Source: Cetorhinus maximus | Taxonomy: Eukaryota | NCBI RefSeq assembly: GCF_964194155.1 | Contig: NC_135910.1 | Coordinates: 7,192,001-7,256,000 of the forward strand | Direction of reading: 5' to 3' | DNA length: 64,000 bases | In this document: one piece after another, positions 400 to 54,210 of the stretch | Layout: each line of letters opens with the position of its first letter | How positions within the stretch are numbered: the stretch's first letter is position 1 | Notes under the pieces: model-generated | Seen by the model: only the letters and a program-made list of their open reading frames with translations | The model's database searches: none | Told to the model about the DNA's origin: nothing | Translations under genes and position numbers: made by a program

Positions 400-959
400 C
401 TAGAGGGGTGAGTGGAAAGAGAAACCCATTCAGCTCTCGTAAATAATACGTTGTCCAATCCCCAATGGTCTTGTGAAATCAGAAATAATGGTTGAATTTA
501 TAACTTTTATCACGCCAGGCATCTTTTTTTTTTAACATTCGTGGGATGTGGGCATCGTTGGCTTGGCCAGCATTCATTGCCCTAACTGCCCTTGTTCAGA
601 GGGCAGTCAACCCCGTTGCTGTGGGTCTGGAGTCACGTATAAGCCAGACCGGGTAAGGACGGCAGATTTCCCTCCCTAAAGGACATCAGTGAACCAGATG
701 GGTTTTTATGACAATCGGGCAGTGGTTTCATGGTCATCAATAGGCTTTTAATTCCAGATTTTTATCGAATTCAAATTTCATCATCTGCCAATGGCCGGAT
801 TCGAACCCGGGTCCCCTGGGTATTATCCTGGGTCTCTGGAATACTAGTCCAGCAACAATACCACTATACCTCCCTCTCATGGCTTCTCATGAAGAAACAG
901 CGCTGGGTGTGTGACTCAGAGCGTGAGAGCTCACAATCCCACTGTGATGGTTTGAGAAT

Positions 960-1355
960 TCAAATTCCGTTTAGAATTCTCACTCTTGTTTCCAGATTTC
1001 GACAGGGCCTTGCCACTCCCTATCTCCTCCTGCCCCCCCCACAACCCTCCGAGGTATCTGTGCTCCTCCAATTCTGGACACTTCAACATTCCCGATTTTA
1101 ATCGCCCCCCCCCAACCTTTGGCGGCCGGGCCTTCAGCTGCCTGGGGCCTAAACTCTGGCATTCCCTCCCTAAACCTCGCCACTCCTCTTTCCTTCCTTT
1201 AAGACACTCCTTAAAACCTAACCCTTTGACCAAGCTTTTGGTCATCTGGTCACATGTCCTTGGTGTCGTACTTTGTTTTGCAATGTTCCCGTGAAGGGCC
1301 TTGGGATTTTTTTTGTTACGCTAAAGGCGCTGTATAAATATAAGTTGTTGTTGTT
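960..1355 (+). mobile_element. L2-type LINE 3' fragment (others at ~19680-20045, 32275-32630, 40555-41095, 41815-42160)
   Basis: GGRAFS.LGP.LW.SLP...LKT.L motif and ATAAATA(TTG)n-type tail. Confidence 0.75.
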
Positions 1356-1510
1356 TACTCGTATCCAGTTCCAGGCAATGCTGAATGGACAATAAATTGC
1401 CAGGGATGTCCACATCCCCGGAGAATCAATTAAAGAATTGCTTTCAAGATGCGGTGACTGTTTTTACGTAGAAATTAAGCACTGGCCCCGAAACAGCAGC
1501 GATCTGTTGG

Positions 1511-1727
1511 AGTAAAAACAAAGATAGCTGGAAAAACTCGGCAGGTCAGACAGCGTCTGCGGAGAGGAGCACAGTCAACATTTCGAGTCCGTCTGACTCT
1601 TCCACATGGACTCGAAACGTTAACTCCGTCTCCCTCTCCGCAGGCGATGTCAGAGCCTGCCGAGTTTGTCCAGCTGTTTTTGTTTTTGTTTCAGATTTCC
1701 AGCACCCGCAGTATTTTGCTTGTATCT
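1511..1727. mobile_element. Palindromic Penelope-derived short element, family A (others at 9189-9418, 32680-32876, 41601-41729, ~50020-50220, ~59105-59280; single arms at ~11350-11460, 13955-14050, 48297-48400)
   Basis: Two inverted copies of the same end sequence (GAAACGTTAACTC...CAGATGCTG.CAGACCTGCTGAGTTTT..CAG); 14-bp TSD cagcgatctgttgg / cagtgatctgttgg. Confidence 0.8.
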
Positions 1728-2419
1728 CAGTGATCTGTTGGTCTGTGTTTGATCTGCCGAGGAGGGTATATATTTAAGGCCAAGACGTCAGAGCAAGTCG
1801 CCTGCTCTTCCTTAAGCAGCGCCAGGGGATCTCCAACATCCACATGAACCCACAAACAGGGCCTGGATTAATGCCTCACCTGAGGGAACCTTAAAGACGC
1901 CACTTTTAACAACTTTAAAAACTTTACGTTAAACCTGCTTCACTACACGTCCTCCCTTCTCTTTTTCTTCTGTGATCATTGTTCGATTCTTTAGCTTAAA
2001 TTCTGTCATTTATTTTACTATTGCGATTATAACAGTGACACTGTCCTTTTTCCTTTGTCTCCAAAGCGCCCATCTCGTTTGAGAAATCGCCCAAGCAAGT
2101 TCATGCATAGGGTTAGAAACTTGTCCCAGAGCAAATTTTGTGCTTTAACCCGTGATTTTCTTGACAGGAAGACCCAATTGGAGCTTAGCTTCTAATGGAC
2201 TGCTTTATCAGTGACATGGAGGTCGAGGAAATAGAGATGACTTCCTGTAGATAACCAAACATGCAATTAGACCACTGCTCTGCCTCTGGGTGCCTGGCGT
2301 TGCTGAGCGGCACCATCAGCGATGCACTGCCGTGATTACCCACCAGGTGGCAAAAGAGTCCACGATTATGTTTCACAGGTTTGCGTATTGTTGAGAGAGA
2401 AAGAGAGTCCAATCAGAAC

Positions 2420-2930
2420 TGAAGAGAGGTAGGAATGTGTTGGGTTTTATGCTGTCGAAAAAGCGGAGAGGGGCAGGTAGAGAAAAAGGGGGAGGTCATG
2501 GATTGGTTAGAGGGCGGGGAGATTAAATGACAAAGGTGTCAGGGAACAAAAGGCATGGCGAGTGGGAATGATAGTAAAGGATCAAAGCACTGGTCCAGAG
2601 TGGGTGTTAATAGCAGAATAAAGGTCAGTGCTGTCTGAAAACAAAACGTGAAAGTAAGATACAGACTGGCACCAAGGGAGAGAAAATACAAAATGGAGGA
2701 GAGAGTTTGTGGTCCGGAGTTGTTAAACTCAATGCTGAGTCCAGAAACCTGCCAAGTGCCCAGTCGGAAGGTGAGGTGCTGTTTCTCCAGCTTGTGTTGG
2801 GCTACATTGGAACACTGCAGCAGGCCAAGGACAGGGAGGTCAGGGCCACGCTTGCGGACTGAACCTAGGTATTGGGCAAAGCGGTCACCCAGTTCTGTGT
2901 TTGGCGTCCCTACCGCAGAGGAGACCACGT
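2420..2930 (-). mobile_element. Penelope-like element 3' fragment (GIY-YIG C-terminus + 3' UTR); related UTR at about 11530-11835 (+)
   Basis: ORF 2539-3015 contains LGLLQCSNVAQHKLEKQHLTFRLGTWQVSGLSIEFNN, resembling the end of vertebrate Penelope ORFs (recalled consensus RKLEEQHLIFRLG.LQP.GLN). Confidence 0.75.
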
Positions 2931-3204
2931 CAAATCCTGGCCCCACATATCTTTTTAAGAAATTTCCTATCGGCTTCTTCTGAGCTGGAATCAAAGATGG
3001 ACAAACACCTACCAAGCTGCGTCCAGTAAGAATTAATCTTCAATTCATCTCAAGATCTCCCAGAAGACTTGTATTTACATAGTTCGTTTACACCATCTTC
3101 GGACATCTCAAAGTGCTTTACAGCCTACGAAGTGCCTTTGACGTGCACTCACAGTTTGTAATGTAGGGCCGCAGCAGCCCACTGGCGCACAGCAAGATCC
3201 CAAA

Positions 3205-3690
3205 ATCAGCAAGTGTGTGAGGGATTGGAGGGGGCGCGGCAATGATTCACAGGAATGGTCCCAGGGATGAGAGACTTCGATCACCAGGATCGATTGGGAA
3301 GAGGAGAGTCGAGAGGAGATTTGATAGAGGTGTTCAAAATCTCGAGGAGTCTGGGCAGAGTAGATAAGGAGAAACCGTTCCCATTAGGGGAAGGATCGGG
3401 AACCAGGGGGCACAGATTTAAGGTGAAAGGCAAAAGAAGCAACGGCGACATGAGGAAAAACTTTTTCACGCAGCGAGCGGTTAGGACCTGGAACGCACAG
3501 CCCCGGGAGTTGGGTGGAAGCAGATGCAATGGAGGCTTTTGAAAGAGAATCGGACAATTATCTGAAGAGGAATAAAATGCGGGGCTGGGGGGGGGGGAAA
3601 GGCGAGGGAGTGAGACTGGTCGAGTAGCTCTCACATCGTACACGATGGGCTGAATGGCCTCCTTCTGTGCTGCATGCGTTCTAATGCGAC
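3205..3690 (+). mobile_element. CR1 LINE 3' fragment (others at about 13350-13640, 16300-16990, 20930-21790, 22705-23260, 23765-24370, 24770-25230, 33030-34010, 37655-38015, 38470-38860, 42515-42946, 45915-46210, 53365-54200)
   Basis: RGDLIEVFKI...TRGH.(F/L)K...FFTQR...WN.LP remnants and shared 3' UTR. Confidence 0.85.
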
Positions 3691-4329
3691 GATGGCCTGA
3701 TCGCCAGTTTCAGTAATGATGGTTGAGGGACAAGAGTTGGTCAGGACAGCAGAGAGCTTCTCCGTTTCTTGACAGAGGCAGGAGCGCCACTCGATGAGTC
3801 ACGGCTCACACCGGAAGATAGCTCACACTTACAAAACATTGGAGTTTGGATGAGGGCAGAGTTGTATTCCACCCTTGCAGTGCAATCGCCCTACCAGGCC
3901 TGGTGTGAAGGCTCATGCAGAGAGGACGTCGATGAGGCACACAGGAGCCAGTGTCTTCGTGAAAAAGGGAGAGTGAAATTACAGCAGTGATTGGAGGAGG
4001 GGGGCGGGCGGGGGCCAGTTAAAGTAAAGACAAAAAATAAAACACAGATGTTTTTCACATCCTCAGGATATCACAATGCGCTTCATGACTAAGGAACTTC
4101 ACCGATCTTTGGCGAAGGATGCAGGAAACCTCCTACAATCACAAGAAGCCCAACCACATCGGCAATGATCTGGTTGACTCAGAGAAAAGCTGATGTCAAC
4201 CGGAGATGGAGATACATGTCACTGGGAGGCCACGCGACACCGAGGGAGCTGGTGAGATTAACGGCGTAGGAGCAACAGGAAATACCCGACTGATATTTAG
4301 CGTCGCCCAACAGGGTTCCGGTACTCATT

Positions 4330-4352
4330 AGAGAGAGAGAGAGAGAGAGAGA
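4330..4352. repeat. (GA)n microsatellite
   Basis: Read directly from the sequence. Confidence 0.95.
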
Positions 4353-5261
4353 TGAAAGCTGCTGTGCTTGGCGTTAAAGTTAAAAATACAAACAAGAATA
4401 GGGTATAAGAAACCACACCAAAGCTAAAGTTGCGACTCTACCAAAAGCCCCATCATGAGATCAAGATCAGTCACACACGCTGACAATTGGCTGTCATAAT
4501 GAGATCTCATTATCAGTCAACCATGTTGAAAACCACATCATGGCCTCACCCTCCCCCATCTTTGGAGTCCCCTCCAGCCCCACCTCAACCCCCACCTCCC
4601 CATTCTTCGGACCCTGGCCTCCTGTACATGTCCGCTCCCATCCCGCCACCAGCTGGCCCTCCCTTCAGGCTGTGTAGACCTCACACTCTACAACTGCCTC
4701 CCTGAAACCTAAAACCACTCCAAGGATCGAGCTCGGGGTGGGGGGGGACAGCCATTCCCTGGTTCATTCCCCACGGCAATGCCTTGACCGATCAGAGTCG
4801 GCCCGCCCAGTTTTGAATTTGAACGAAAGCTTGGCAGTTAACTGTCCCTTGCTGCATTCTCCATGACAACGCCTCTACCAATCAGAGTCCACTAGCCAAC
4901 CAATCAGCAGTCTCTTCTCATGCAGTATAAATTGATGCTCCCTTCACAATTGGTACTCTTGTGAATCTCTCTGATGAGTCCGAGACAAAACGCTTAGACA
5001 GCCTGTCTTTTTTCTCAGCTACGTCCAAGGATTTGTAAGGTTGATAGAGAGGAACCGATTCCTCTGATGGAGGGAGTCCAGTACGTTTGGGGGAGGGGTG
5101 CAGGGGTGGTATAATCTTAAAATTACAGCTAGACCATTCAGAGATGACAGTGGAAAGCATAGTGGAAATCTAGAAAACTCTCTGCCAAAAAGCTGTTGAG
5201 GACGGAGAGGGTGGGTGGGTCGGGTTAAAGGGCAGTGGGGGCAAAGGCAGGTAAGTGGAAG

Positions 5262-5632
5262 ATGGCAGCGTAGTGGGTAATGTCACTGGACTGGCAATCC
5301 AGAGGGCCAGGCTAATGCTCTAAGGATGTAGGTTCAAATCCCACCATGGCAGCTGGTGGAATTAAAATTCAACTAATAAATCTGGAATTAAAATCTAGTC
5401 TCAGTAACCATGACAGCGATCGTCAGTTGTTGTCCAAAAAACCCATCTGGGTCAGAAGAGTCCTTCAGGAATTGTAAATCTGCCATCCTTACCTGGTCTG
5501 GCCTACGTGTGACTCCAGACCCACAGCAACGTGGTTGACTTTTAACTGGCCCTCTGGAGCGGGGCAATTAGGGGATGGGCAATAAACGCTGGCCTTGCCA
5601 GTGAAACCCACACCTCACAGAGGAACAAATAA
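5262..5632 (+). mobile_element. tRNA-derived SINE with LINE-shared tail (copies at ~535-875, 15510-15870, 23281-23565, 35868-36215, 46527-46845, 51795-52180, 52945-53350)
   Basis: A-box-like start and B box GGTTCAAATCC; 3' end GGCAATTAGGGATGGGCAATAAATGCTGGCC..., matching the LINE 3' end. Confidence 0.85.
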
Positions 5633-6184
5633 AAGGGAGAGTTGGGATGCAGATCAGGCGTGCCCAACTCGAACGGCAGCCGCGCATAAAATGTGCATTT
5701 GTCTGAAATGCAGCTTCAAAAAGCTCCCTAACTGGCATCCTGAGGACATGTCGAGCGCTGCACAAATGCACATTTTATCTCTCAAATGTGTCAACGATCA
5801 ACGGCCTGGGCTGAGGGGGCCGTGTTTATCAGTGATTTCGGGGCCTGTGTATCTAGGACAAGTTACCAGTCCCTGATAGCGATCAATTAGTGCCGCGGAG
5901 AACCATTTGAGAGTTTTGCGGCTCACTTTGTGTGTGTGTAAAGCGTCCACCTACCAGTCGAGAGATAACTGTGGTTAAATGACTCATTAGCAAAACGCTG
6001 CCAGCATTGTTATAGAAACACTATGAAAGCTCATTTACATGAGGTCTGGCAGAATAACAAAATCTGTGGTGTAAAACTGGGCTATGACCCACTATTGAAC
6101 AAGGAACATTAAATCTGTTACCCATGGCTTCCCTGCATCTGTGCTTTAATTTATTTTCCCGAGTGCTCACTTTCTAGGGGTCGC

Positions 6185-6434
6185 CTGGACCTCAGCTGGT
6201 CCCGCTCACGCCTCCAAGTCAGAAGCCCGTGGGGCTGACCTCCGCTGCAGAGGCCTGAGCCCATAGTCCAGGCTCACGGCTCAAGCGCAGCGCTGAGGGA
6301 GTGCTGCACTGTCGGGGGCGCTGTCTTTTGGAGCGAGGTGTTACGCCTGCTTTCTCCGCTGGCTGTAAAAGATCCCATGGCACTATTTTGAAGACGAGCA
6401 AGGGGAGTGCTCCCCGGCGTCCTGGCCAATATTT
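6185..6434 (+). mobile_element. Third tRNA-SINE family (copies at ~8385-8590, 28490-28890, 54850-55230, 61130-61330, 61690-62510)
   Basis: Shared core TGCAGTGCTGAGGGAGTGCTGCACTGTC...GATGAGACGTTAAACCGAGG...GATCCCATGGCACTATTT; family not named with confidence. Confidence 0.65.
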
Positions 6435-6454
6435 ATCACCGAAAAGAGGGACAT

Positions 6455-6492
6455 GTTGCTGAAGCTTTTCATCTCGCACTCATCAGGACTAA
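6455..6492 (-). ncRNA. Minimal type I hammerhead ribozyme motif (core intact, stem I degenerate)
   Basis: Minus strand: GTC-CTGATGA-GTGCGAGAT-GAAA-AGCT-TC. This gives CUGAUGA, GAAA, a palindromic AAGCUU stem III and a UC cleavage site. Activity is untested. Confidence 0.6.
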
Positions 6493-6959
6493 ATGCAAGA
6501 ATGCCAAATTTCAAACAATTTGTGCTACAGGAGAAAAGGGTGCTGGCTGGTTGGTAAGTCAACTCCGATTAGCCCAGGCGTTACCTTGGAGAAAGTAACC
6601 GAGCTATAAGCTCCCATGCTTCAAAAAGTCCATATTCCATTTGTTTGCAGAGGGACGGGTCTCTACGTACAAATGTGAGTCTCTTCGAGCAAGCATAAAT
6701 AAGACAAGTTACGAGCTTAACTGATTATCTTAACTTGGTTGCTAGATATACCTTCATATGCAGGGACATGTTCTCTGCAAATGAAAGGGATATTTCAAGC
6801 CTTTTTTGAATAATCCCTAAGACTGGGGAGCTGATAGTTCCCCATTGCCTTCTCTATGGTAATATCTTGGCCAATCAGAGTCGATTTGCCAACCAGTTAA
6901 TACCCTTTTCTCCTGTAGTATAAATTGTTGTGATTGTTTGAAATTTGGTGTTCTTTTGT

Positions 6960-6996
6960 TTGTCCTGATGACTGCAAGATGAAAGGCTTCAGCAAC
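6960..6996 (+). ncRNA. Minimal type I hammerhead ribozyme motif (degenerate)
   Basis: TTGTC-CTGATGA(6965-6971)-CTGCAAGAT-GAAA(6981-6984)-GGCT-TC-AGCAA. Confidence 0.5.
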
Positions 6997-9019
6997 ACTT
7001 TGCTCTTTTCAGTGATGTAAAAATCTCTTCCTTCCTTCTCTTGGCCCACCTACACAACCCACCGGAGGTATTTAGAGAAAGCGTTGATCTGGTTTTTAAA
7101 CTCTTCACACTCCCCTTTGTAACAGGATGTGGCATCTTCCTCCGCTGTACCAACCACACCTGCCCACCTACTGCTCCCCAACCATTCCCGGGAAAAAGCG
7201 AGGGATTCTTCAGGATTCTCATAGAAGAGAAGCGGGATTGACAAAAACGCCACCTAGAAAGTAGCAGACCCGTGCGAGTTCCCCTCCAAGTCACTCACCA
7301 TCCTGACTTGGAAATATATCGGCCGTTCCTTCACTGTCGCTGGGTCAAAATCCTGGAACTCCCTCCCTAACAGCACTGTGGGTGTACCTACACCACATGG
7401 ACTGCAGCGGTTCAAGAAGGCAGCTCACCCACCACCTTCTCAAGGGGCAATTAGGGATGGGCAATAAATGCTGGGCCCAGCCAGCGACGCCCACATCCCA
7501 TGAAAGAATAATTTTTTAAAAAATCATCAGGAGTGTGATGGTATACTCTCCACTTGCCTGGATGAGTGCAGCCCCAAAAACACTCCAGAAGCTCAAGGAC
7601 CATCCAGGACAGAGCAGCCCCGCTTAACTGTCACCCTTTCCACTACCTTCAACATTCACTCCCTCCACCACCGACGCACAGTAGCAGCAGTGTGTACCAT
7701 CTACAAGATGCACTGCAGCAGCTCAGCAAGGCTCCTTTGACAGCACCTTCCAAACCCACAGCCACTACCATCTAGAAGGACAAGGGCAGCAGACACATGG
7801 GAACACCACCACCTGGAAGTTCCCTCCAAGCCACTCACCATCCTGACTTGGAAATATATCGGCCGTTCCTTCACTGTGGCTGGGTCAAAATCCTGGAACT
7901 CTCTCCCTAACAGCACTGTGGGTGTATCTACACCACATGGACTGCAGCGGTTCAAGAAGGCAGCTCACCACTACCTTCTCAAGGGCAACTAGGGATGGGC
8001 AATAAATGCTGGCCCAGCCAGCAACGCCCACACCCTAAGAATGAATAATAAAGGCTGCTATGGAACCATAAATGGGAAAGAGGCACTTGGGAAATCTCCT
8101 GATTTTTCCATATATTTAGCCTGGTAATGTGGAAAACACAGCAGTCAATTGATGCACAACAAGATCCCACTAGCAGTAACGTGATAATGACCAGATAATC
8201 TGTTTAAGTGATTTGGCTGAAAGACATTTAATATTTAACAACATTTGAGAAGTATTTAGATGAGCACTTGAAATGCCATAGCACACAGAGCTAATGGGCC
8301 AAGTGCTGGAAAATGGGGTTAGAATAGGTAACTGCTTGATGGCCATGATGGGCCTAAGGGCCTGTTTCGGTGCTGTCTATGAGTCTCTAAACACTGGCCA
8401 GGGCACCCCTGCTCTTCTTCCAAATAGTGCTGCGGGATCTTCCTGAAAGAGCAGATGGGTACCTCGGTTTAGTGTCTCCTCCGACAGTGCCGCACTCCCC
8501 CTGTAGTGCCCCGGGGTTTTGCACTCAAGTCCCTGGGTTGGGACTTGAAGACGCAAGAGCGCTCCCTTCTGAGCCAATGACTGACACCCGTGCAGCTTAC
8601 TGGCAGAATTGCGGATCTGCTCAGGCAGGAGGTCAGGCACGATCTCGCAGCATAGAATGGTTGTCGCACAGGGGGAGGCCATTCAGCCCATTGCATTTGT
8701 GCTGGCTCTCTACCCAGGGGCTACCCAGCCAGTCTCACTCTCATGCCTGTTCCCTGTAGTTCAGCAAATTAAGATTTAAAAATAAATTGTCTTGTGTCTG
8801 GACCTGTAGTTTATTTTCAGAATTGTTGAGCGCTACTCAGAATGTTATTTATCAGTGCTGAAATTTAACATTAAAAAATCGACACTGCCGGCACGATAAG
8901 GGTTAAGAAGAGAGAAGACAATTACATTCATACCAGTCCCATGTCTGATAAGATCCAATCTTATTTCAGATCATTGCAAACTGTAGCAGTTTAACAAACA
9001 GTGTCACCGCTTACAACTA

Positions 9020-9905
9020 AGGTTAATTCTATTGAAAGGGGATTGGGGTACAGGAATGATGAAGACTTGCTACAGTTGCACAGGGCTCTGGTGAGACCAC
9101 ATCTGGAATACTGTGCGTAGTTTTGGTCTTCATGTTTTGAGGAAGGATATACCTGCATTGGGGGTACAGAGAAGGTTCACTGGATTGGCATTAAAAAAAG
9201 AAAATGCTAGAAAAAGCTCAGCAGGTCTGGCAGCATCTGTGGCGAGAGAAACAGAGTTAACGTTTCGAGTCCATATGACCCTTCTTCAAAGGCTCTGAAG
9301 TAGAGTCACACGGACTCGAAATGTTGGCTCCGTTTCTCTCTCCACAGATGCTGCCAGACCTGCTGAGTTTTCCCAGCATTTTCTGTTTTTGTTTTGGATG
9401 TCCAGTACCTGCTTTTATTTCATTGGATTGGTCCCTGGGATGAGTTGCCCTATGATGAAAGGCTGAGTAAATTGGACCTATAATCTCTGGAGTTTAGAAG
9501 AATGAGAGGTGATCTCATTGAGACAGGCAAGATTCTGAAGGGGCTGGACAGGGCGGACGCTGAGAGATTGTTTCCCGCTGGTCGGGGAATCTAAAACACG
9601 GGGGTCTCAGGATAAGGGGGCGATCATTTCGGACTGAGATGAGGAGAAATTTCTTCACTCAGAGGGGCTTGTGAGTCTTTGGAATTCTCGACCCCAGAGG
9701 GTAGGGGATGCTCCATTGCTGAACACATTTAAGGCTGGGACAGACAGGTTTTTGGTCTCTCAGGGAGTTAAGGGATATGGGGAGCGGGCAGGAAAATGGA
9801 GTTGAAGCCCAAGATCAGCCATGATCGTATTGAATAGTGGAGCGGACTTGATGGGCCAGTGGGTCTACTCCTGCTCCTATTCCTTGTGTTCTTGTGTTTT
9901 TGATG
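9020..9905 (+). mobile_element. CR1 LINE 3' fragment interrupted by a Penelope-derived hairpin element
   Basis: CR1 C-terminal sequence resumes after an insertion at ~9189-9418, flanked by a 13-bp TSD (ttcactggattgg / ttcattggattgg). Confidence 0.85.
9252..9332. ncRNA. Back-to-back degenerate hammerhead motifs (family A) on opposite strands
   Basis: Minus: TTGAAGA-AGGGTC-ATATG-GACTC-GAAACGTT-AACT. Plus: CTGAAGT-AGAGTC-ACACG-GACTC-GAAATGTT. Each has one substitution in the CUGANGA core. Confidence 0.55.
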
Positions 9906-11919
9906 ATATCTCAATGCTATAAACATTCTCACAGGACCACAGAAACATGCAGCATGGAAGGAGGCCATTCAGCCTATTGTGCCCATGCTGGAGCTTTGAA
10001 AGCGACACCTGTCAGTTCCAATCCCGCTACTCTCTCTCTCGATAGTCTAAGAATGCTTTCCCCTTGCAAGTAATTATCCAATTCCCATTTGAAAAATTAC
10101 TTCTGAATCTGCTTCGTCCACCTTTCCGGGCAGTGAATAGCAACAACTTACTAGACGCAGAAATCTTTGAGGCAGAAATTTGGGTTGCTGCAGTTTGCAG
10201 CAATAATCTCCTCAGAACAGAAGCCAAGCCTCAAGCTCTCATTGGTGCTTATGGTTTTAAGTGTTTGCAAGACAGGGTGTGTTGTGCTGGTCTGATTTGC
10301 ATAGATAAGAACGAGGGGGAGAGTTGGAACTTTAACTCCACTGTTGCCATGCGCCACTAACTGGTTGGACTTTAAATGTTGGGGTGCGGGGATTCGCAGG
10401 TTGAATCCAAGCCTCACAGTGGGAGTATTGGTCACAGGGAGTGTGTGACAGAAAGTCACACGCTGTCCATCCGCCATTTTCTGCTGTGCATTCTGTGCAA
10501 CCTGATCTGCTCCCCTGTGGAAACTATTTTTTACATTTTTGCAAGGATCTGGGATGTGGGCGTCGCTGGCTGGGTCAGCATTTATTGCCCATCCCAACTT
10601 GCCCATGAGAAGGTGGTGGTGAACCACCTTGAACCGCTGCAGCCCATGTGGTGCCTTGGTCCCTTTTGGTCCCTCTCATCCATCACCCCTGTGTTCACTG
10701 ACCGACCTCAGACACGGCCTCCAATCTAAGATTCTCATCCTTCTGTTAGAAGCTTAGCTGCCCCCTCCAGCCCTACAACCCTCTGGGATCCCTGCTCTCC
10801 TCCAATTCTAACCTCTTGTGTTCTAGAATTATTTTTTTTGTTATCTGTTCATGGGATGTGGGTGTTGCTGGCTGGGCCCAGCATTTATTGCCCACCCCTA
10901 ATTGCCCTTGAGAAGGTGGGGGTGAGCTGCCTTCTTGAACCGCTGCAGTCCCTGTGGTGTAGGTACACCCACAGTGCAGTTAGGGAGGGAGTTCCAGGAT
11001 TTTGACCCAGTGACAGTGAAGGAACGGCGATATATTTCCAAATCAGGATGGTGTGTGACTTGGAAGGGAACTTCCAGGTGTTGGTGTTCCCATCTATCTG
11101 CTGCCCTTGTCCTTCTAGGTGGTAGAGGTCGCAGGTTTGGAACTCCCTCCCTAAGCTCCTCTGCTCTCTCTCTCTCTCTCTCCTCCCTTCGACAAACCAT
11201 AAGCTCACTTATCTCATCGCTGCTTGGAGGACTTTGCTAAGAGCAAATTAATTATACTACAAAAGTGACTGTGATTCAAATGTACTTCAGTAGTTGCATG
11301 GGAATCACTTCCTAAGAGTCAGAGGTCATGGAAGGCACTGCAAAAATGCAATAGCTAAATACTGCAGATGCTGGTAATCTGAAATAAAACAGAAAATTCT
11401 GGAAATACTCAGCAGGTCTGGCAGTACCTGTGGAGAGAGAAAAACTGAGTGACCTTTCTGATGAAATTCAACGCAAGTTCGAGGAATGGCTCCTCATTTT
11501 TTGACTCGACACTTGACAGCCGTCCGGACTCAACAACTTTACATCATAACCCTGCCCCATTTTGTTCTGTGTATTTTTTTTTTTGCTGGTCTGTTTTTCT
11601 CTCTTTCTTAACTCTGCTACCTTATTTTAAGATGGCAGCCTCTCAGGATCCTGCCATTCACACCTCTATCTTTTGTTTCTGTACCTTCCCCATTACCACT
11701 CCCTCTGGCTTTTCACCATGAAACTTTTTGTCATTTAATCTCCCTTGTCCTCTACTCTCTCGCCAACCTTCCCTTTTGTTTTTTTTTCCCAACCTTCTCC
11801 ATTTCGCCTGCTTAAAAACTCTTACATTTCAAACTGCGTTTGCTGCCAATACATGCGCAGTCAATACCGCTTTATTCCATGACATTGCGAGTGACAGAGA
11901 TCAAAACTCTACTCATATG

Positions 11920-12920
11920 AACATTCCAATTAAGGGCAGGAGTAGGCCATTCAGCCCCTCGAGCCTGCTCCGCCATTCAATTAGGCCATGGCTGCTCTGA
12001 CTGTAACCTCAGCTCCATGTTTCCGCCTACCCCAACAACCTTTCACCCCCCTTGCTTATCAAGAATCTATCTACCTCTGCTTTAAAAATATTCAAAGACT
12101 CTGCATCTACTGCCTTTTGAGGAAGAGAGTTCCAAAGACTCACGACCCTCTGAGAGAAAAAAAATTCTCCTCATCTCTGTCTTAAATGGGCGACCCCTTT
12201 TTTTTAAACAGTGACCCCTAGTTCTAAATTCTCCCACAAGAGGAAACATCCTCTCCACATCCACCCTGTCAAGACCCCTCAGGATCTTATATGTTTCAAT
12301 AAAGCCGCCTCTTATTCTTCTACGTTCCAGTGAATACAAGTCTAACCTGTCCAGCCTTTCCTCATAAGGCAACCCACCCATTCCAGGTATTAATCTGGTA
12401 AACCTTTTCTGAACTGCTTCTAACACATTTACATCCTTCCTTAAATAAGGATACCAATACTATACACAGTACTCCAGATGTGGTCTCACCGATGCCTTGT
12501 ATAATTTGAAGCATAACCTCCCTCCTTTTGTTTTCAATTCCCCTTGCAATAAATGATAATATTCTATTAGCTTTCCTAATTACTTGCTGCACGTGCATAC
12601 TAACCTTTTGCAATTCACACACTAGGACACCCAGATCCCTCTGCATCTCAGCGCTCTGCAATCTCTCACCATTTAGATAATAAGCTTCCTTTTTATTTTT
12701 CCTGCCAAAATGGACAATTTCACATTTTCCCACATTAGACTCCATTTGGCCAGATCTTTGCCCACTCACTTAACCTACCCATGTCCCTTCGTAGCCTCCT
12801 GTGCCCTCTCCACAATTTACTTTCCTGCCTATATTTGTGTCATCAGCAAATTTAGCCACTGTTCCTTCGGTCCCTTCATCCAAATAATTTTATATAAATT
12901 GTAAGAAGAGTTGCCCCAGC
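11920..12920 (-). mobile_element. CR1 LINE 3' fragment
   Basis: ORFs 12082-12426 and 12362-12769 carry CR1 C-terminal motifs (QRDLGV, AVQKRFTRLIPG); CR1 3' UTR present. Confidence 0.9.
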
Positions 12921-13810
12921 CTTGGTGTGGCTCATATCCTCTTCATTTAGTTTCTCTCTTCCATTTTTTTAGGATTCTGGAACTAGAAAGGGCTACTTTA
13001 TTCATGACAAAATACAATACCCATTTCCGCCTGGGTAATTCCCTTTGGCTTTATCTTTTTCTATAGCCGGCACCCATTTCAAACAATCAAGCATCAAACA
13101 TGGATGCCGGGGACTTCAGACCCCCCCCTTTAAAATGCCATGGAGCAGATTTTCAACTTCCTGCTTCTGAAGCTACGCAAAACACCTGGACACAGCCACA
13201 AAGATTAAAAATGGGTTGGGAAATTGGCCAGCTCCCTTATGGGTACATGATCTGACGCACCTGATGTTTACTTGGTGACCTGTACTTGGGTGATTCAGTT
13301 TGCCTACGCTAGGGACACAAAAAACCTGCACCAATTTTTAAAAAAATTCAATGGGAATAGATTCAAGATAAGTGGCAGAAGGTGTAGGGGACACATGAGG
13401 AAGAACTTTTTTACGCAGAGGGTATTGGGTGTCTGGAATTCGCTACCCAAGTTGGTGGTAGAGGCAGAAACTTTAAACTCTTTTAAAAAGTACCTGGATC
13501 TGCACCTTAAGTGCTGTAAGCTGCAGGGCTATGGGCCGGGTGCAGGAAGGTGGGATTAGAAAGGGCACCTGGGTGTCCTCGGGCTGGCATGGACAAGATG
13601 GGCCGAATGGCCTCCTTCTGTGCTGTAACTCTTCTATGGTTCTACGGAATACTACATATATATATAGATCATGCTTCATCTAACCGCTGAGTGGCAATTT
13701 AAATTTGTGAATGTAATTTCCACTGTCGGCAAGATTCAGCATTGAGCTCTCTGTGGACGCGCAGACCGGTGTTACCAGCCATCTTGTGTTGGCAAGAACA
13801 CAACAAATAA

Positions 13811-13931
13811 CCCAGTGAAAACTGGGAAATAAGAGTACTGGTCCGAACTGGTCTTGTATACCTTAACATGGAACGCCAGTAAAAACTGTGGAAGTAAGAG
13901 TACTGGTCCGAACTGTTTTTTTCCTACTGGG
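13811..13931 (+). repeat. Unclassified ~120-bp dispersed element (38-bp repeat / 26-bp spacer / 38-bp repeat); inverted copies at 43662-43782 and ~50300-50572
   Basis: CAGTAAAAACTGGGAAATAAGAGTACTGGTCCGAACTG twice around GTCTTGTATACCTTAAAATGGAACAC, ending in a T-run; three highly similar copies. Confidence 0.85.
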
Positions 13932-14396
13932 AGAGACGGTGCACATTTCAAACTTTTCTCAGTTCTGAAGGTCATTGACCCGAAACGTTAACCCAGTTTC
14001 TCTTTCCACAGACGCTGTCAGACCTGCTGAGCACTTTCAGCATTTGTTGCAATGTTTTCCTTTGGCACAGAGGGCGGACTCGTTCCCATTGCCCGATATA
14101 TAGTCTCGGGAGCCATGTCGATAACAAAGCGGTGCCAAGTGACGACACTAACCTTACCCAGGGCAGAAGGAATCGCTTTCTGCTGCTGGACTACTGGCAC
14201 AGGCTGGGTTTGAGTTCTCCTGAGGTGGGCAGCCAGTGACACATTGAGCAGTACATCTCACTACAAGAACCTCGACACTTGCATTAAAGCCGCTAGATCC
14301 ACACACATACACGCACATAGCAAACCAGTTAGCAAACATAGTCGGCTCAGTAAGCAACGATTGACACGCATTGCTAGTCGATGGTAAGGGACTTAC

Positions 14397-31823: not shown

Positions 31824-34800
31824 CTGCAAAGTGGAAAAGGAAAGTGAACCATGAGAATGATACTGATCATAGCGTGAGCTGGACACAAGGGCCAGACACA
31901 TCTCTGTTACGATATGCGACAGCACTAGCCATTAGCATCCCACCAGCACGCTTAGACAATATTGTAGCATGTGCATGAGATCCACAACATTCCTATCCCT
32001 CGAGCGTCCTTCGCAAAGCCCGTGAAGATATGCCACAAGCTACAGGTCACCTGGGTGATGCACGTCTATTGGACCCAACAGCTTAACTTGTGATTAAGGT
32101 AAAAAAAACCCAGAGCTCTCTTCAGGTAGGAGCATTGTTGAGTTGTAGCATCTTCTGATGATGAACGTCATGGGCTGTAGCGGGGATGATTGATAACCTC
32201 TATCTTGGCAATACTTTCACAAAGTCCTGCCAGTCTCTCCCGCTGATGCACTAATTAATTTACCAGCCCGCCTAAGATTTTAAAATTCTCGTGCTCGTTT
32301 GCAAAACCTTCCATGGTTTTTCCCCTTCCTATATTTATGACCTCGACAACCCTCCGAGATCTCTGTGCACCTCCCATTCGGGCCCCGTGTGCTTCCCGAT
32401 TTTAATTGCTCCAGCACTGCCAACCGCACCTTCGCCCGCTCCGACCCTAAGTTCTGGAATTCACTCCCTAATCCTCTCTGCCTCTCGCTCCTTTAAGTTG
32501 TTGCTTAAAACCTACCTCCTCAGCCAAGCTTTTGGTGACTTCCCTAAAATCTCCCAGCCCTCATACGTTGTTTTGATAGCTCCTTTTGAGATGTTTTACC
32601 ACGTCAAAGGTCTTATATAAATGCAAGTTGTTTACCCATTCCGTCACCTCAAGTATTCTGCATGTTAAGCTTTTCCATTAAGATAAAAGCAAAAAACTGC
32701 GGACGCTGGAAATCTGAAACAAAAACAAAAATACCTGGAAAAACTCAGCAGGTCTGACAGCATCTGTGAAGAGAAAGACAGAGTTAACGTTTCGAGACTC
32801 TCAAACTCTAACTCTGTTTCTCTCTGCACAGATGCTGTCAGACCTGCTGAGTTTTCCCAGCACTTTTTGTTTTTGTTTAAGCTTTTCCATTCCTGCTTCA
32901 CATGGTATTAAAAATCATTTTTAACAAGGCAATTTCAAAGCTGTCAGGCAGCTGAGCTTTGAAATTCGTTGAGTGCAATGGGACAGGAGGTTGTGCAGGT
33001 CCATTGGTTGTACAAGCTGCCCAAATACATAGGAACATAGGACTTAGGAGCGGGAGTAGTCCATTCGGCCCTTCAAGCCTGCTTTCCCATTCAATAAGAT
33101 CATGGCTGATCTGGTTGTGGTTTCAACTCCACTTCACCATCCTCCCCACCGTCCCCCCACCCCCATTACCACCCCCTCCCTCCCCCTGCCTAACCCTTGA
33201 CTCCCATGTCTATCAAAAACCTAACTCAGCCTTGAATAAAGTCAATGACCCAGCCTTCACTGCTCTCTGGGGAAGAGAATTCCACAGACTAACAGCCCAT
33301 TGAGAGAAAAATATTCTCCTCATCTCCGTCTCAAATGGTAGATCTCTTATTCTTAAACTGTGTCCCCTGGTTCTAGTCTCTCCCACAAGTGCAAACATCC
33401 TCTGGGTATCCACCCAATCAAATCCCCTCAGGATCTTCTATATTTCAATAAGGTCACCTCTCATTCTTCTAGACTCCAATGGGTATAGGCCCAACCTGTT
33501 CAGCTTTTCTTCATAAGATAAGCTCCTCATCCCAGGAATTTGTTGAGTAACTGCTCGAGCTACTCACAACCTCCACCTAAACCCTCTCTCCAGTAAGGAT
33601 CACCTTGTTATCTTTCCCATGGCTTTTTTCTCTAGAACGGAGAAGGCCAATGATAACGCTCTTTAAAATTATGAACAATTTCCACAGGGTAGACATGGAG
33701 AAGACAATTCCACTTATGGGCAAGTGCAGAACTAGGGCTATAAAACATAAAATGGTCACTAATAAGTTCGGTAAAGAATTCAGGAGAAACTTCTTTACCA
33801 AGAGAGTAATTAGAAAGTTGAACCTGGTGCTACATGGAGTAATCGAGGCGACAAGCAGAATGTATTTAAGGCAAAACTCGGTAGATATACAAGGGAGAAA
33901 GGTTTAGCAGGATATGGTGATGGGGTTAGATGAAGTAGGATGGGAGGAGGCTTGTGTGGAGCCAGTCAGACCAGTTGGGCTGTTTCAGTGCTGTAAATGC
34001 TATGTGATATGACCACGTGTAGATTGCATGTTGCCTATCAAATCGATGATACCGTGCCTAACCATTCCTGCACATGGTGCTGACTGAATTGTTCAACACA
34101 GCTCCCATCAGATTCTGTTTTTGCACTGCTTCCCCTTTATCCAGGAGGTCAGAAACTTCCCTCGTGGCCAAGCACCTGGGGCGATTCAGGACTTCATGGG
34201 GCCTGGCTTTGAACCCACTGACGTGAAGCGGATTGGCCCCCGTCAGTGGGAGCTAATTTTGAGTGCATGAGGTTGAGCTGAATGGGGGTCCCTGGATTTG
34301 GTGAGCTGAGGGCGTGTTGCTTGCTGGACATTGGGTTTGACCGCTTAGACCAGCTAACCAAAACAATCACAACATCTTGAGGATGTGCGTTGCTGATAGA
34401 GCAACCATTTTACAGACAAGTATAACAGAAAGAATTATGGTGCAGTGGGAGAGCATTCAACCCTTTGTGTCCATGCTGTAATAGCCAAAGGAATTTAGCT
34501 TTAAGGCTACAAAATCCTGAGGTGCAGAGGCAGTTAACTTGGGTCTGTCCAACAGGGTGGAGTCTGTTAACCCACCATGTTTATTTTTGACAATTCTATT
34601 TGTGAAGTTTAACTGTTTCTCACTCATAAGCTTGTGGGTGAAGACAACATGGCTCACCACAGTAAACAGGTACAATAAAGAGAACATTGCTTCTCCAACA
34701 TATCCCAACACTCAAACCCATCTACTATCAAAACACCCAACCCATAACGTACCAACATATTCATTGCCAAGCTCTCATCAAACTACCCGAACTCACTAAC

Positions 34801-40278: not shown

Positions 40279-42162
40279 GAGCTCACGTGAGGAGTCTTTT
40301 CACGTTGTACTGCAGCTAGCACATGGTACTGGCTAACCAGGAAACTCTCCTGCTCTTACCACCAATCGGAATATCGGAAGGATTTACAGACGGACAATCA
40401 ACCTGCTTGGCCACACCACAAATGCACCCTCCATGGCCATCAAGTCCTGGGCTGGGTTTCGAACCCAGAGCTTTGGGCTCAGACATAGGGACACTACCCA
40501 CTGTGCCACAAGATCTCCTATGGCGGGTGCTGACTCTGCCTTCAAGAGGAAGTTGCACCATTTCCTGACTGGTAGAGAATACATCATATTGACCATTCAT
40601 GCCTGCGTTACCTCTAGACTCAACTACTCCAACACACTCCTACATTCTACCTTCTGGGAACTAGAGGTCATCCAAAACTCTGCTGTCTGTGTCTCTCCAT
40701 CAAGTCCCGTTCCCCTATCATCTCAGCGCTTGCTGACCTACAATGGCTTCTGGTCTTGATTTTAAAGTTCTCATCTTTGCTTTCAAATCCCTCCGTGGCC
40801 TCGCCCCTCCCTATCTCTGTAATCTCCTCCAACTCCACAACCCTCCGAGATATCTGCACTCCTCTAATTCTGGCCTCTTTGTGTATCCCCAATTTTAATC
40901 TCTCTCCCACTGGTGGCCGTGCCTTCAATCGCCTGGGTCCCAGGCTCTGGAATAGCCTCCCAATGCATCCCCCGCCTCTCTATCTCACTCCCCTCCTCAA
41001 AACCTACCTCCTTGGCCAAGCTTTTGACTTTACTATCTCCTTCTGTGGCTCGCTGTCATATTTTGTTTTGTAATGCTCCTGTGAAGTGCCTTGGAGGGCT
41101 AAAGGGAGATCGGAAACTTTTAACCATGGTTCCCCAGCCACTGCGTCCCCCTCAGGCAGGCTCGATGGATCAGCTGGTTTTGTTCAGCTCCTCACTTTGG
41201 TAAGTTTGTATGTTGGCGACTGGTCTTAAGGAAATCTTAAAGAGATGAGCAAGGGGGCAGCTCTAACAGCCTTTCGTCTTATCAAGGCTAAGCCAAGTGG
41301 TCAGGAAGGCTGTTATAACAATCTGCTTATAGGGATAAGGCAAGGGGTCAAGAGGATGGAGTCACAGCAATGACTGGTCTTAAGGATATGAAAACAGAGA
41401 GCCTAAATTTTCCGGGCCTAGCGGGCGGGATGGATAATTTGACAGACCAATAACAGGTCCGCTGACTTCAGGTGAGAATGTCAGGTCCATCGGTTGGATA
41501 GGACTGGAAAATCCCCACCCATAGTCAGCAGTGACCGGGTCAGCAAGGAGAACCCAGATTGTTTTCAAACTCAGCTTTAGGGCGAGGATTATTCTCCTAT
41601 AACAAAAACAAAAATACCTGGAAAAACTCAGCAGGTCTGACAGCATCTGCGGAGAGGAATCTGCTGAGTTTTTCCAGGTATTTTTGTTTCTGTTTCAGAT
41701 TTCCAGCAGTATTTTGCTTTTATCTTAGTGATTATTCTCCTATGTTGGCCCGAGGGAGGTTGGGTGTTTTTTTTCCAATCTTTGGTGTGCCGTCCCCAGG
41801 CAGGACTGTGTCGATTTTAACACCTCTCGTCCCTGTTTTCAAATCTCTCCATGGCCTCACCCCCATCTATATCTGTAACCTCCTCCTGCCCTATGGCCCG
41901 GCAAGATACCTGCGCTCCTTACCCTTACCCCGCTGTGGGCCTTCAGCTGGTGAGGTCCTAATTGGAATTTCCTCCCTAAAACCCCTCTGCCTCTCTTATC
42001 CACCCTGGACCATCATTAAAGCCTTACCTATTTGACCAAGCTTTTGTTCACCTGTCCTTACACCTGCTGATGTGTCTCAGTGTCAGACTTTGCCTGACAA
42101 ACGCTCGAGTGAAGCACCTTGGGACACTTTACTACATTGAAGTTGCTATTTAACTACACCTT

Positions 42163-43321: not shown

Positions 43322-45255
43322 ATTGTTGTGGTGGGAATCCAACTCTTGACAGGGTCAATATGTCATAGGGTAATTGAGCCATAGGAACACAGAAGGAGGC
43401 CTTTCGGCCCACCAGGTCCATGCTAGCTCTGCGTAGAACACTCTAGTCAGTCCCATTCAGAAGTGGCCCAATGAGAGGGCTATGTATCCACATAGGCTGC
43501 CTGTGTATAAAGGCCCATTTATTAGCCTAAGGGCATGGAGACACTTTTCCTAATTTATGTTTGTCAAATGCCTGAATCTAAAACCAAACCTAAACCCTTT
43601 CCTGTATCTGAAGGTGTTTCTCCTCATTTGAAGGTAGGTATGACATTTCCCCCTCTTGTTCCCCAGAAGGAAAAAACAGTTTGGACCAGTACTCTTATTT
43701 CCCAGTTTTTACTGGTGTTCCATTTTAAGGTATACAAGACCAGTTCGGACCAGTACTCTATCTCCCAGTTTTTACTGTTTTTCCCCTCTTGTTCTGGAGC
43801 CCTGCAGACCCGTTCCTGGGACCTTGCACAATAACGTCCCAAACCGGATACTCGGATGTTCCTGAGAGAGGAATGGTGGTGCCTTTCCCTCCAAGTCTCT
43901 CCACGAGGATTTAACTATTGCAGGTTTGGAACACAGTCGCAACTCTGACACTCCATCCTAAGTGAGACTGGTTTTATAGACCAACAGCTCAAGAATTAGT
44001 TCTTGAGGTGGCTGTCTTGTTCATGCTACAGATTAACATCATCATCTTGTGGTTTGGCTCTTAATTGTAGAACCATCAGATCCAGAGGTCAGTTTGACTC
44101 ATCCTCCGCCAGGTACCATGTCCTAAGAGGGCGTTGGTGACCATGGACTTCCATTGGATTGGTCCATGATTATGCTTGGCAAAGTACTGCAGTGGTTTGC
44201 TCTTGCTCTCTGCAGTATGGCTGACCAGGAAACTTTGCCTCTCTTACTGCCTGCCATCGGGTGTATTGGAAGGATTTACAGGCTGATAACCAACCAGTTT
44301 GGCCACATGATGAACACAACTTCCGTGGCCATCAAGTCCTGAAGTGAGACTTGAACCCAGAGCTTCTGGCCCAGAGATAGGGATGCTACCCACTGTGCCA
44401 CAAAGCCTCCTGACCATAACCCTTTACCCTACCCAAAACCAACTCAGTTTTCAGTTGGCACCAGTGGCCTCTTTGTCCAAAGTTTGCTTTTGCCAGCTCA
44501 TAACTAATAACTAACATGACAAATAACTCATAACTAGAGTATGCTGAAAAAAAGAGACATGCTATTGAGCTTTTCATCTTGCACTCAGCAGGACAGCTGT
44601 GCAAGATAAACCAATAGTGAAGGGGCCAACAACTTATACTGCATGGCAAGAGTGTGCTGATTGGTTGGCAAGTGGATTCTGATTGGTAGAGGCGTTGCCA
44701 TGGAGAATGCAGCAGAGGACAGTTAATTGCGAAGCTTTTGTTCCAAATTCAAACCAGGCAGGTTGACTCTAATTGGTCAAGACATTGCCCTGGGGAATGA
44801 ACCAGGGATGGCTGTCCTCCAAGTTTTGGTTAGTTGGAAAAAGTCTAATGCATGGACATGCTCCTTCTGACCCATAACTAATGTATCATTTGGAATTATT
44901 ACCAACCCAACTATGTACATTGTGGAAATTTCCTGGTGGGAGACACTCAAATTCAGACGGAAAGAAAGGATACTTCTACAGGTGTATTCCTTGGATGCAA
45001 CAACACTTGCATTTATATAGCATCTTTTCAAGGTCCCCAAGCCACTTGACAGGAGCGTTATCAGACAATGTCTCACATTGAGTCACATAAGGAGCTATGA
45101 GGACAGGTGGCCAAAATCTTGGTCCAAGAGATTAATGACGAATATTAGAATTGATAGAGACATTCAGAGGCTGACCCTGCTTTGGGTTAGTTAAGATTGG
45201 CCTTTAGTCATCAACTTGCCCATCCAGGGCTGACAGGCTAATATAGTGGACTCAC

Positions 45256-53700: not shown

Positions 53701-54210
53701 AGATTATAAGTATCAGGAATTGCTGGAAAAGAGAGACGTTTTTGTCATAGTTTTTTGCCTTGCAATCATCAGGTCAATTCGCAACGACTAGCTATGAGGA
53801 AGGACAGAACAATCTGGGCCTCTTCTCTCCAGAAAACTGAAGACTTGAAGGTGACTTATGAGCACTTTAAGATTCTGAAAGGGTTTGATAGGGTAGGTGT
53901 AGAGGAAATGTTCCCAGTCGCGCGGGAGGCCAGAACCAGAGGCCATCAATAAATGAGAGTTACCCAATAAAACCAGAGACCGGTGAGAGTGTGGAACTTG
54001 CTACCACATGGGGTGATTGGGACACATTTCATCGATGTATTTCAAGGGAAGCTAGATGACAAGGAAGGAATAGAAGGGAATGCTGATAGGGTTAGATAAA
54101 GTTGGGGAGGTGGGTGGGGGGGGGATGCGAAGGGGAGGGTGCAGAGGTTTGTGGGAGGAGCGTGACCAGAAGTACGGACCAGTTGAGCTGAGTGATCTGT
54201 TTCTTTCAGA

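Follow-up and report, generated by a model that had tools for sequence, protein, structure and literature searches.

The window analysed here, a 64,000-nt stretch of Cetorhinus maximus DNA, carries RasGEF and C1 exons on its minus strand, and protein mapping places a RasGRP intron at 401..14394 (minus strand), between the exons 14547-14395 and 400-44; the latter exon is 100% identical to a Cetorhinus maximus protein annotated at its source as RAS guanyl-releasing protein 4. Within this intron, pairwise alignment of the arms delimits an inverted repeat at 6435-7016 with its arms on opposite strands. Indeed, 205 of 264 aligned bases are identical and the global score reaches 197 against -49 +/- 13 in 200 shuffles, which upholds the ~580-bp palindrome described in a first-pass annotation of this DNA. 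The left arm (6435..6741, minus strand) is the 5'-truncated 3' end of a Penelope-like element (PLE) of subfamily A, and the right arm (6739..7016, plus strand) is a second, shorter 3' end, also of subfamily A; both are without the optional tail. They meet head to head at 6739..6741, where TTG is common to both arms as a 3-nt microhomology, and they are unequal, with ~58 extra bases of endonuclease sequence in the left arm. The palindrome locus shows no target-site duplication of at least 6 nt. At its left end the insertion interrupts an older dispersed repeat (6290..6434, plus strand), which we take to be SINE-like, and directly to its right lies a LINE-end-like direct repeat (7282-7429 and 7822-7969, 97% identical, 540 nt apart). 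Further short palindromic repeats in the window, presumably MITE-like, occupy 9213-9371 (79-nt arms), 32723-32872 and 41601-41694; the hairpins at 32.7 and 41.6 kb are related to each other and give chance microRNA matches in Rfam.

Each arm comprises an endonuclease remnant, a pseudo-LTR and the start of the element's ORF. The GIY-YIG endonuclease C-terminus of the left arm is broken (6630..6741, minus strand; tblastn E = 0.002 to L089), as is the remnant of the last endonuclease codons in the right arm (6741..6810, plus strand). Promoter-like motifs conserved in the family alignments follow in the right arm at 6871..6924 (plus strand; CCAAT at 6871, CCAAC at 6889, TATAAA at 6919). Their counterparts in the left arm (6519..6572, minus strand; CTAAT, CCAAC and CACAAA) are decayed: CTAAT replaces CCAAT, the TATA box is lost (CACAAA at 6524) and 9 nt are deleted. 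The previously described order, running from the endonuclease remnant through a CCAAT box and a TATA position to CTGATGA..GAAA..TC, is present in both arms, although the CCAAT and TATA elements of the left arm are recognizable only as decayed forms. The ATG that opens the element's ORF in tandem copies lies in the left arm at 6452..6454 (minus strand).

The type I hammerhead core (C3-A9, G12-A14, A15.1-U16.1, non-G at position 17) is found in both arms and in 67 of 140 copies, with UC or UA depending on the subfamily. In the left arm the motif spans 6455..6500 (minus strand) with a predicted cut at 6461/6460; its pseudoknot strand occupies 6500-6494, the core 6486-6480, the loop strand 6479-6471, GAAA 6470-6467 and the palindrome 6467-6462. 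As the first-pass annotation stated, this motif keeps CUGAUGA, GAAA and UC, and exon mapping confirms that it is sense in the RasGRP pre-mRNA, since host exons on the minus strand flank the palindrome. It nevertheless carries a G-U pair at 10.1-11.1, a C-A mismatch at 2.1-1.1 (the first stem I pair) and one base inserted in stem I. The right motif (6952..6996, plus strand; core 6965-6971, GAAA 6981-6984, predicted cut 6990/6991) retains neither G10.1 nor the upstream pairing strand nor the ATG, and its first stem I pair is broken, so that stem I is mismatched at 2.1-1.1 in both arms. Within the 64-kb window the bare core pattern is not enriched (11 matches against 7.3 +/- 2.7 by chance), and Rfam scans matched no hammerhead family; the case for a hammerhead rests for these reasons on the evidence of the family. 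There, no more than 4 of 175 copies are intact in core, stem II, stem I and palindrome alike, and most lesions sit at CpG sites.

Besides the two arms, the window holds a solo 3' end of subfamily B at 4743..5019 (plus strand), whose hammerhead is without G12; a second solo 3' end of subfamily B, with the tail, at 44529..44869 (minus strand), in which A6 is changed and stem III has a deletion; and a fifth copy absent from the first-pass annotation, short, decayed and limited to the hammerhead region (~53713-53790, minus strand). The four copies that the annotation had grouped do carry different lesions, as it said, but they represent two subfamilies, the arms belonging to A and the other two to B. 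Because these are two of at least four subfamilies, the hammerhead consensus rebuilt from them is a mixture; it resembles subfamilies B and D and does not represent the palindrome arms. The subfamily B pseudo-LTRs (4757-4889 and 44620-44820) also contain an internal duplication of 89 nt by which the CCAAT module is doubled, and none is seen in subfamily A.

The proposal that this genome harbours a hammerhead-bearing Penelope-like family was borne out: the right arm yielded 2424 first-look genome candidates and the subfamily B repeat 6415 (candidates rather than copy numbers), and the arms are the pseudo-LTR ends of the family. An upstream walk along longer copies, comprising four successive searches, reached GIY-YIG, then RT motifs and then the N-terminus. 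According to translations and alignment, these longer copies encode an RT followed by a C-terminal GIY-YIG with CCHH residues; the locus itself holds the last codons only. Intact homologs of ~840 aa share 44% identity with the element and match RVT_1 above cut-off and GIY-YIG weakly. One of them aligns from residue 4 at one shark copy, and in the tandem copies L083 and L130 the ORF begins at the ATG directly after the hammerhead, its first codons matching the homolog N-terminus; an intron acceptor considered at this position was ruled out, the stretch being the ORF start. In L083 and L130 the pseudo-LTR arises from a partial tandem that overlaps the ORF start, and the same arrangement is read from 14 of 53 copies containing the ORF, which continue over 110 nt beyond the cut on its upstream side (the 53 being 100 loci minus 29 spurious hits, L315-L343, 2 query loci, 1 near-duplicate and 15 exact duplicates). 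Aligned against supplement Fig. S2 of PMC8557442, the element has no CX2-5CxxC linker zinc finger between RT and endonuclease, and this lack points to the Penelope/Poseidon group of EN+ PLEs; on comparison with the same figure we abandoned a Perere or Nematis label. None of 54 scored genome candidates matches the intact homolog without interruption, and an apparent 702-codon open frame on C18 turned out to be frameshifted, its longest open stretch being 343 aa. Pfam found nothing above cut-off on short shark ORF pieces, none of the 21 candidates in a search with the endonuclease piece was a homolog, and a scan of viral contigs found no relative. Two further copies, L261 and L266 (G000:C1), have near-identical flanks, lie 240 kb apart on opposite strands and both start at about the predicted cut; this pair is probably a segmental duplication.

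Insertion as inverted repeats, noted earlier for PLEs in general, is typical: in subfamily A, 9 of 29 copies have an inverted partner upstream, and in subfamily B 12 of 29 do (several of these hits being shorter than 40 nt), or about a third of the sampled copies, with a downstream partner in 1 of 58. An inverted 5'-truncated copy with an optional tail is the layout described in PMC3846280 and PMC8557442. Furthermore, 3' ends are bimodal: of 129 mapped copies, 46 end 20-27 nt and 29 end 48-55 nt past the ATG; both palindrome arms use the first of these ends, ~20 nt past the ATG. Bimodality of this kind is the tail signature of PMC3846280 and PMC11167929, and the latter paper ties the two 3' ends to two RT start sites and reports in vitro cutting and extension of both strands by a Poseidon protein. 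The element protein would have nicked both target strands, and reverse transcription would have been primed at each nick from the proximal of the two start sites; the two cDNAs would then have stopped ~58 nt apart and been joined at the 3-nt microhomology. We consider it highly probable that the palindrome represents two truncated PLE 3' ends placed head to head, likely by one insertion and likely neutral since, with the hammerheads carried along as terminal-repeat cargo. The identity of the element, the junction, the lesions and the frequency of this layout across the family are direct observations; we infer the single event from the junction and the shared subfamily, because no target-site duplication was found.

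It is possible, though we rate it well below even, that a single antisense template folded back and primed itself to give the inversion, as proposed in PMC3846280, which would leave the element and its neutral fate unchanged. The arms of a pair are always of the same subfamily where both can be classified, and a short junction microhomology is compatible with this route as well; however, the junction holds no palindrome longer than 3 nt, in other pairs the two arms often stop at different start sites, and both strands are cut and extended by a Poseidon protein in vitro (PMC11167929). That the palindrome is a mobile unit in its own right, either a fold-back or MITE-like element or a retrozyme, is hardly credible despite its terminal inverted arms and the many head-to-head pairs in the genome: arm lengths and junction differ from pair to pair, with ~110 to 2400 nt between motifs, no second locus with the 6739-6741 junction appears among the 30 best hits, and tandem arrays are absent here. 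The first-pass annotation had further raised the idea that the intronic palindrome acts as a double-stranded RNA sequestering an otherwise active ribozyme in the RasGRP pre-mRNA. A hairpin that pairs the sense motif is indeed predicted (-266.6 kcal/mol, z = -19.6), the motif is sense in the intron, and the insertion is common to at least one other species, whose contigs span both outer junctions and the centre of the palindrome, so that the insertion predates the split of the two. Any inverted repeat would fold in this manner, so the stability of the hairpin is no sign of a role. As regards expression, run X24 contains paralogous pieces only, which are not evidence in either direction. Against such a role, the pair adjoining the cut is mismatched in the sense motif, which has no nearby sense partner for a dimer; the arms have not been homogenised, their distance of 0.169 being matched by 0.168 in 13 inverted pairs and 0.170 in 3687 random pairs; and the ortholog has diverged like the flanks (25 substitutions in 402 positions within the palindrome versus 74 in 965 in contigs mainly covering flanks, P = 0.42). 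With the arms drifted and stem lesions in both hammerheads, sequestration would have nothing to regulate, and we regard this function as very improbable. Divergence from the subfamily majority (8% and 14% for the arms, against a median of 10.6% over 95 copies) accompanies this picture, and the palindrome is likely an unremarkable relic of a familiar type of insertion, inert at this locus.

The family to which these fossils belong carries a hammerhead of unusual build. Stem I reads UUGUC/GGCAA, GCUGUC/GACAGC, GUGUC/GACAU and UUGUC/GACAA in the respective subfamilies, with a constant core and AAGCUU; at the level of sequence these differences are compensatory, and the covariation of stem I that had been put forward as a check is seen at the family level, where 3 of 5 pairs are changed on both sides. 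Preferential conservation of the core, another check, found weak support among 59 copies fetched by ORF queries (0.072 in the core against 0.098 in base-matched flanks, P = 0.016), a difference which we attribute to selection acting in the source lineages rather than on dead copies. The palindromic stem III, AAGCTT, is real, being kept in four subfamilies and in the metagenome relatives L131 and L134. The usual minimal PLE hammerhead assumed earlier did not emerge: the segment between A9 and G12 has only nine bases, which allow a stem II of 1-2 bp and no bulge. Rather, the inner seven loop bases, UGCAAGA, are complementary to UCUUGCG directly 5' of stem I over 6-7 bp, and this complementarity persists in four shark subfamilies while the neighbouring sequence diverges. 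The probability of a 6-bp match by chance is ~0.02 in four of five copies and 0.12 in one.

Comparative data extend this pairing beyond the shark. L131 and L134 have UCUGACG and UGUCAGA at the corresponding places, with two pairs changed on both sides. Their stem I is wholly different, whereas the AAGCTT palindrome is the same; position 3 is U, and an ATG follows the cut by 3 nt. In alignment A5, whose rows are the best-preserved copies, 97.8% of pseudoknot cells are paired, a percentage inflated by that choice of rows; 2 of 7 pairs are changed on both sides, and none of 500 shuffles scores as high. Apart from CpG decay, the shark copies show no variation in the pseudoknot, and none of its pairs differs on both sides among them; its covariation therefore comes from a single lineage of relatives, whose three rows derive from two contigs of the same sample and include one with a broken pair. 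A 5-bp version of the pairing occurs in L148 (shuffle P = 0.06). Among 26 hammerheads of more distant relatives, which have the bulge, stem II measures 4-7 bp in 24 and 24 show no such pairing. Together, these observations give real but narrow comparative support to regarding the family hammerhead as a structural variant: in the source element, a stem II of 1-2 bp is predicted to be stabilized by a pseudoknot of 6-7 bp that the loop forms with the sequence directly 5' of stem I, and stem III would close as a dimer through AAGCUU. Four sites in relatives from one metagenome (L134:384-399, L134:2745-2760, L131:5029-5044 and L169:2474-2489) have U in place of C3, keep G8 in all four cases and show the same pseudoknot build.

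The position of the motif within the element bears on what such a ribozyme might do. The predicted cut lies 3-7 nt before the ORF ATG, and in most copies of all four subfamilies the knot strand starts 31-33 nt after TATAAA. The usual distance between a TATA box and the transcription start would put this strand at the opening of the transcript, and it is from this spacing that we place it there. Ends of genomic copies offer no clear pile-up at either site: 4 of 53 5' ends fall at the predicted cut against 1.3 expected (3 of 28 in a first batch, P = 0.028 with the window chosen after inspection, and 1 of 25 in a second, P = 0.46), and 3 of 53 fall near the predicted transcription start against 1.3 expected (P = 0.13). 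Furthermore, 33 of the 53 extend 5' through the predicted cut, so that uncut RNA is a common template, and uncut RNA also serves as template in vitro according to PMC11167929.

The pairing of the 5' strand with the loop might alternatively form a hairpin that inhibits the ribozyme in transcripts started at the element's promoter, and not an activating pseudoknot. Nested folding of four intact natural copies returns the same pairing as a plain hairpin in place of the hammerhead; it is the minimum-energy nested fold in three of the four, with a related hairpin in the fourth, although the folding program cannot form pseudoknots. The full 7-bp pairing would leave a single G-C pair in stem II, and the 33 of 53 copies derived from uncut RNA would fit a ribozyme held off. 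Nonetheless, the pairing is compatible with stem I and with G10.1-C11.1, both of which are also kept, and a fast ribozyme with a 1-bp stem II described in PMC3088659 needs a 6-bp pseudoknot; we therefore judge the inhibitory hairpin unlikely. Building on the activating pseudoknot, we tentatively propose, as one conceivable model among others, a hybrid hammerhead in which the pseudoknot would take the place of stem II, stem III would form only in dimers, and the knot would come first in the capped transcript. Cleavage of the dimer would then decap the mRNA and act as a copy-number-dependent switch of translation; if this were true, copy number would decide between translation and another fate of PLE RNA. 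Because the predicted cut sits so precisely before the start codon, the role of the hammerhead can be tested with natural intact copies, among them L216:4334-4391 (plus strand), L212:1211-1268 (minus strand) and L089:686-743 (minus strand).

In its element architecture the shark family agrees with the EN+ PLEs covered in PMC3846280, PMC8557442 and PMC11167929: an RT followed by GIY-YIG with CCHH and no linker zinc finger, a pseudo-LTR with TATA, hammerhead and first ORF codons, tandem copies, head-to-head inversion, two 3' ends ~28 nt apart and an optional 30-40 nt tail. It differs in that no intact ORF appeared among the candidates scored and no target-site duplication at the palindrome, a feature that varies among EN+ PLEs and is not shared by all of them. 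Chondrichthyan PLE families receive no mention in the searched sections of PLE texts and supplements. Non-LTR retrozymes, as described in bioRxiv 10.64898/2026.07.22.740005, are likewise non-coding, hammerhead-bearing derivatives of PLE termini, with one chondrichthyan example reported; they form head-to-tail arrays, whereas the palindrome is one head-to-head pair with endonuclease remnants and holds no head-to-tail array of intact hammerhead units.

The ribozyme itself combines traits of two known groups. With the minimal metazoan PLE hammerheads (Cervera and De la Pena 2014, PMC4209133) it shares the type I order, the CUGAUGA/GAAA core, a short stem I, a palindromic stem III that requires a dimer and the position in the pseudo-LTR; those ribozymes have a long stem II and a bulge after A9, and the shark family has neither. 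They are described without tertiary contacts in PMC6155905, in contrast to the loop-to-5'-flank pairing found here. Pseudoknot hammerheads (Perreault 2011, PMC3088659; Zhan 2024, PMC11300833, PDB 8YDC) have a comparable stem II of ~1 bp and a 6-bp pseudoknot helix, but also a normal stem III with which they work as monomers, unlike the dimer-type stem III of the shark family; moreover, the pseudoknot of 8YDC comes from a stem-loop (helix IV) and that of the shark family from an open 5' strand (PMC11300833). Judged by titles and abstract openings, the papers turned up by literature searches describe neither a pseudoknot in PLE hammerheads nor shark PLE hammerheads, though Lunse et al. 2017 may cover such variants. 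The pseudoknot pairing may thus be new for a PLE hammerhead; the head-to-head insertion layout is already known. PLE hammerheads are near-universal and cut poorly in vitro (PMC4209133, PMC11167929 and PMC8557442), and the shark family ribozyme bears on the question of what they do: a pseudoknot-braced hammerhead would escape descriptors that demand a long stem II, and its cleavage may be faster than that of the minimal versions assayed to date.

Two observations on metagenome PLEs may merit further characterization. A second PLE family in the same contig as the L169 relative, at L169:3023 and in its inverted copy, has a hammerhead with a long stem II, part of which occurs a second time just ahead of the motif. 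The tail of L131 (5034-5103) is ~75% identical in DNA to the shark tail (L216, L083) over 66-68 nt, with the pseudo-LTR upstream diverged; perhaps this likeness reflects a protein-binding or RT-start signal.
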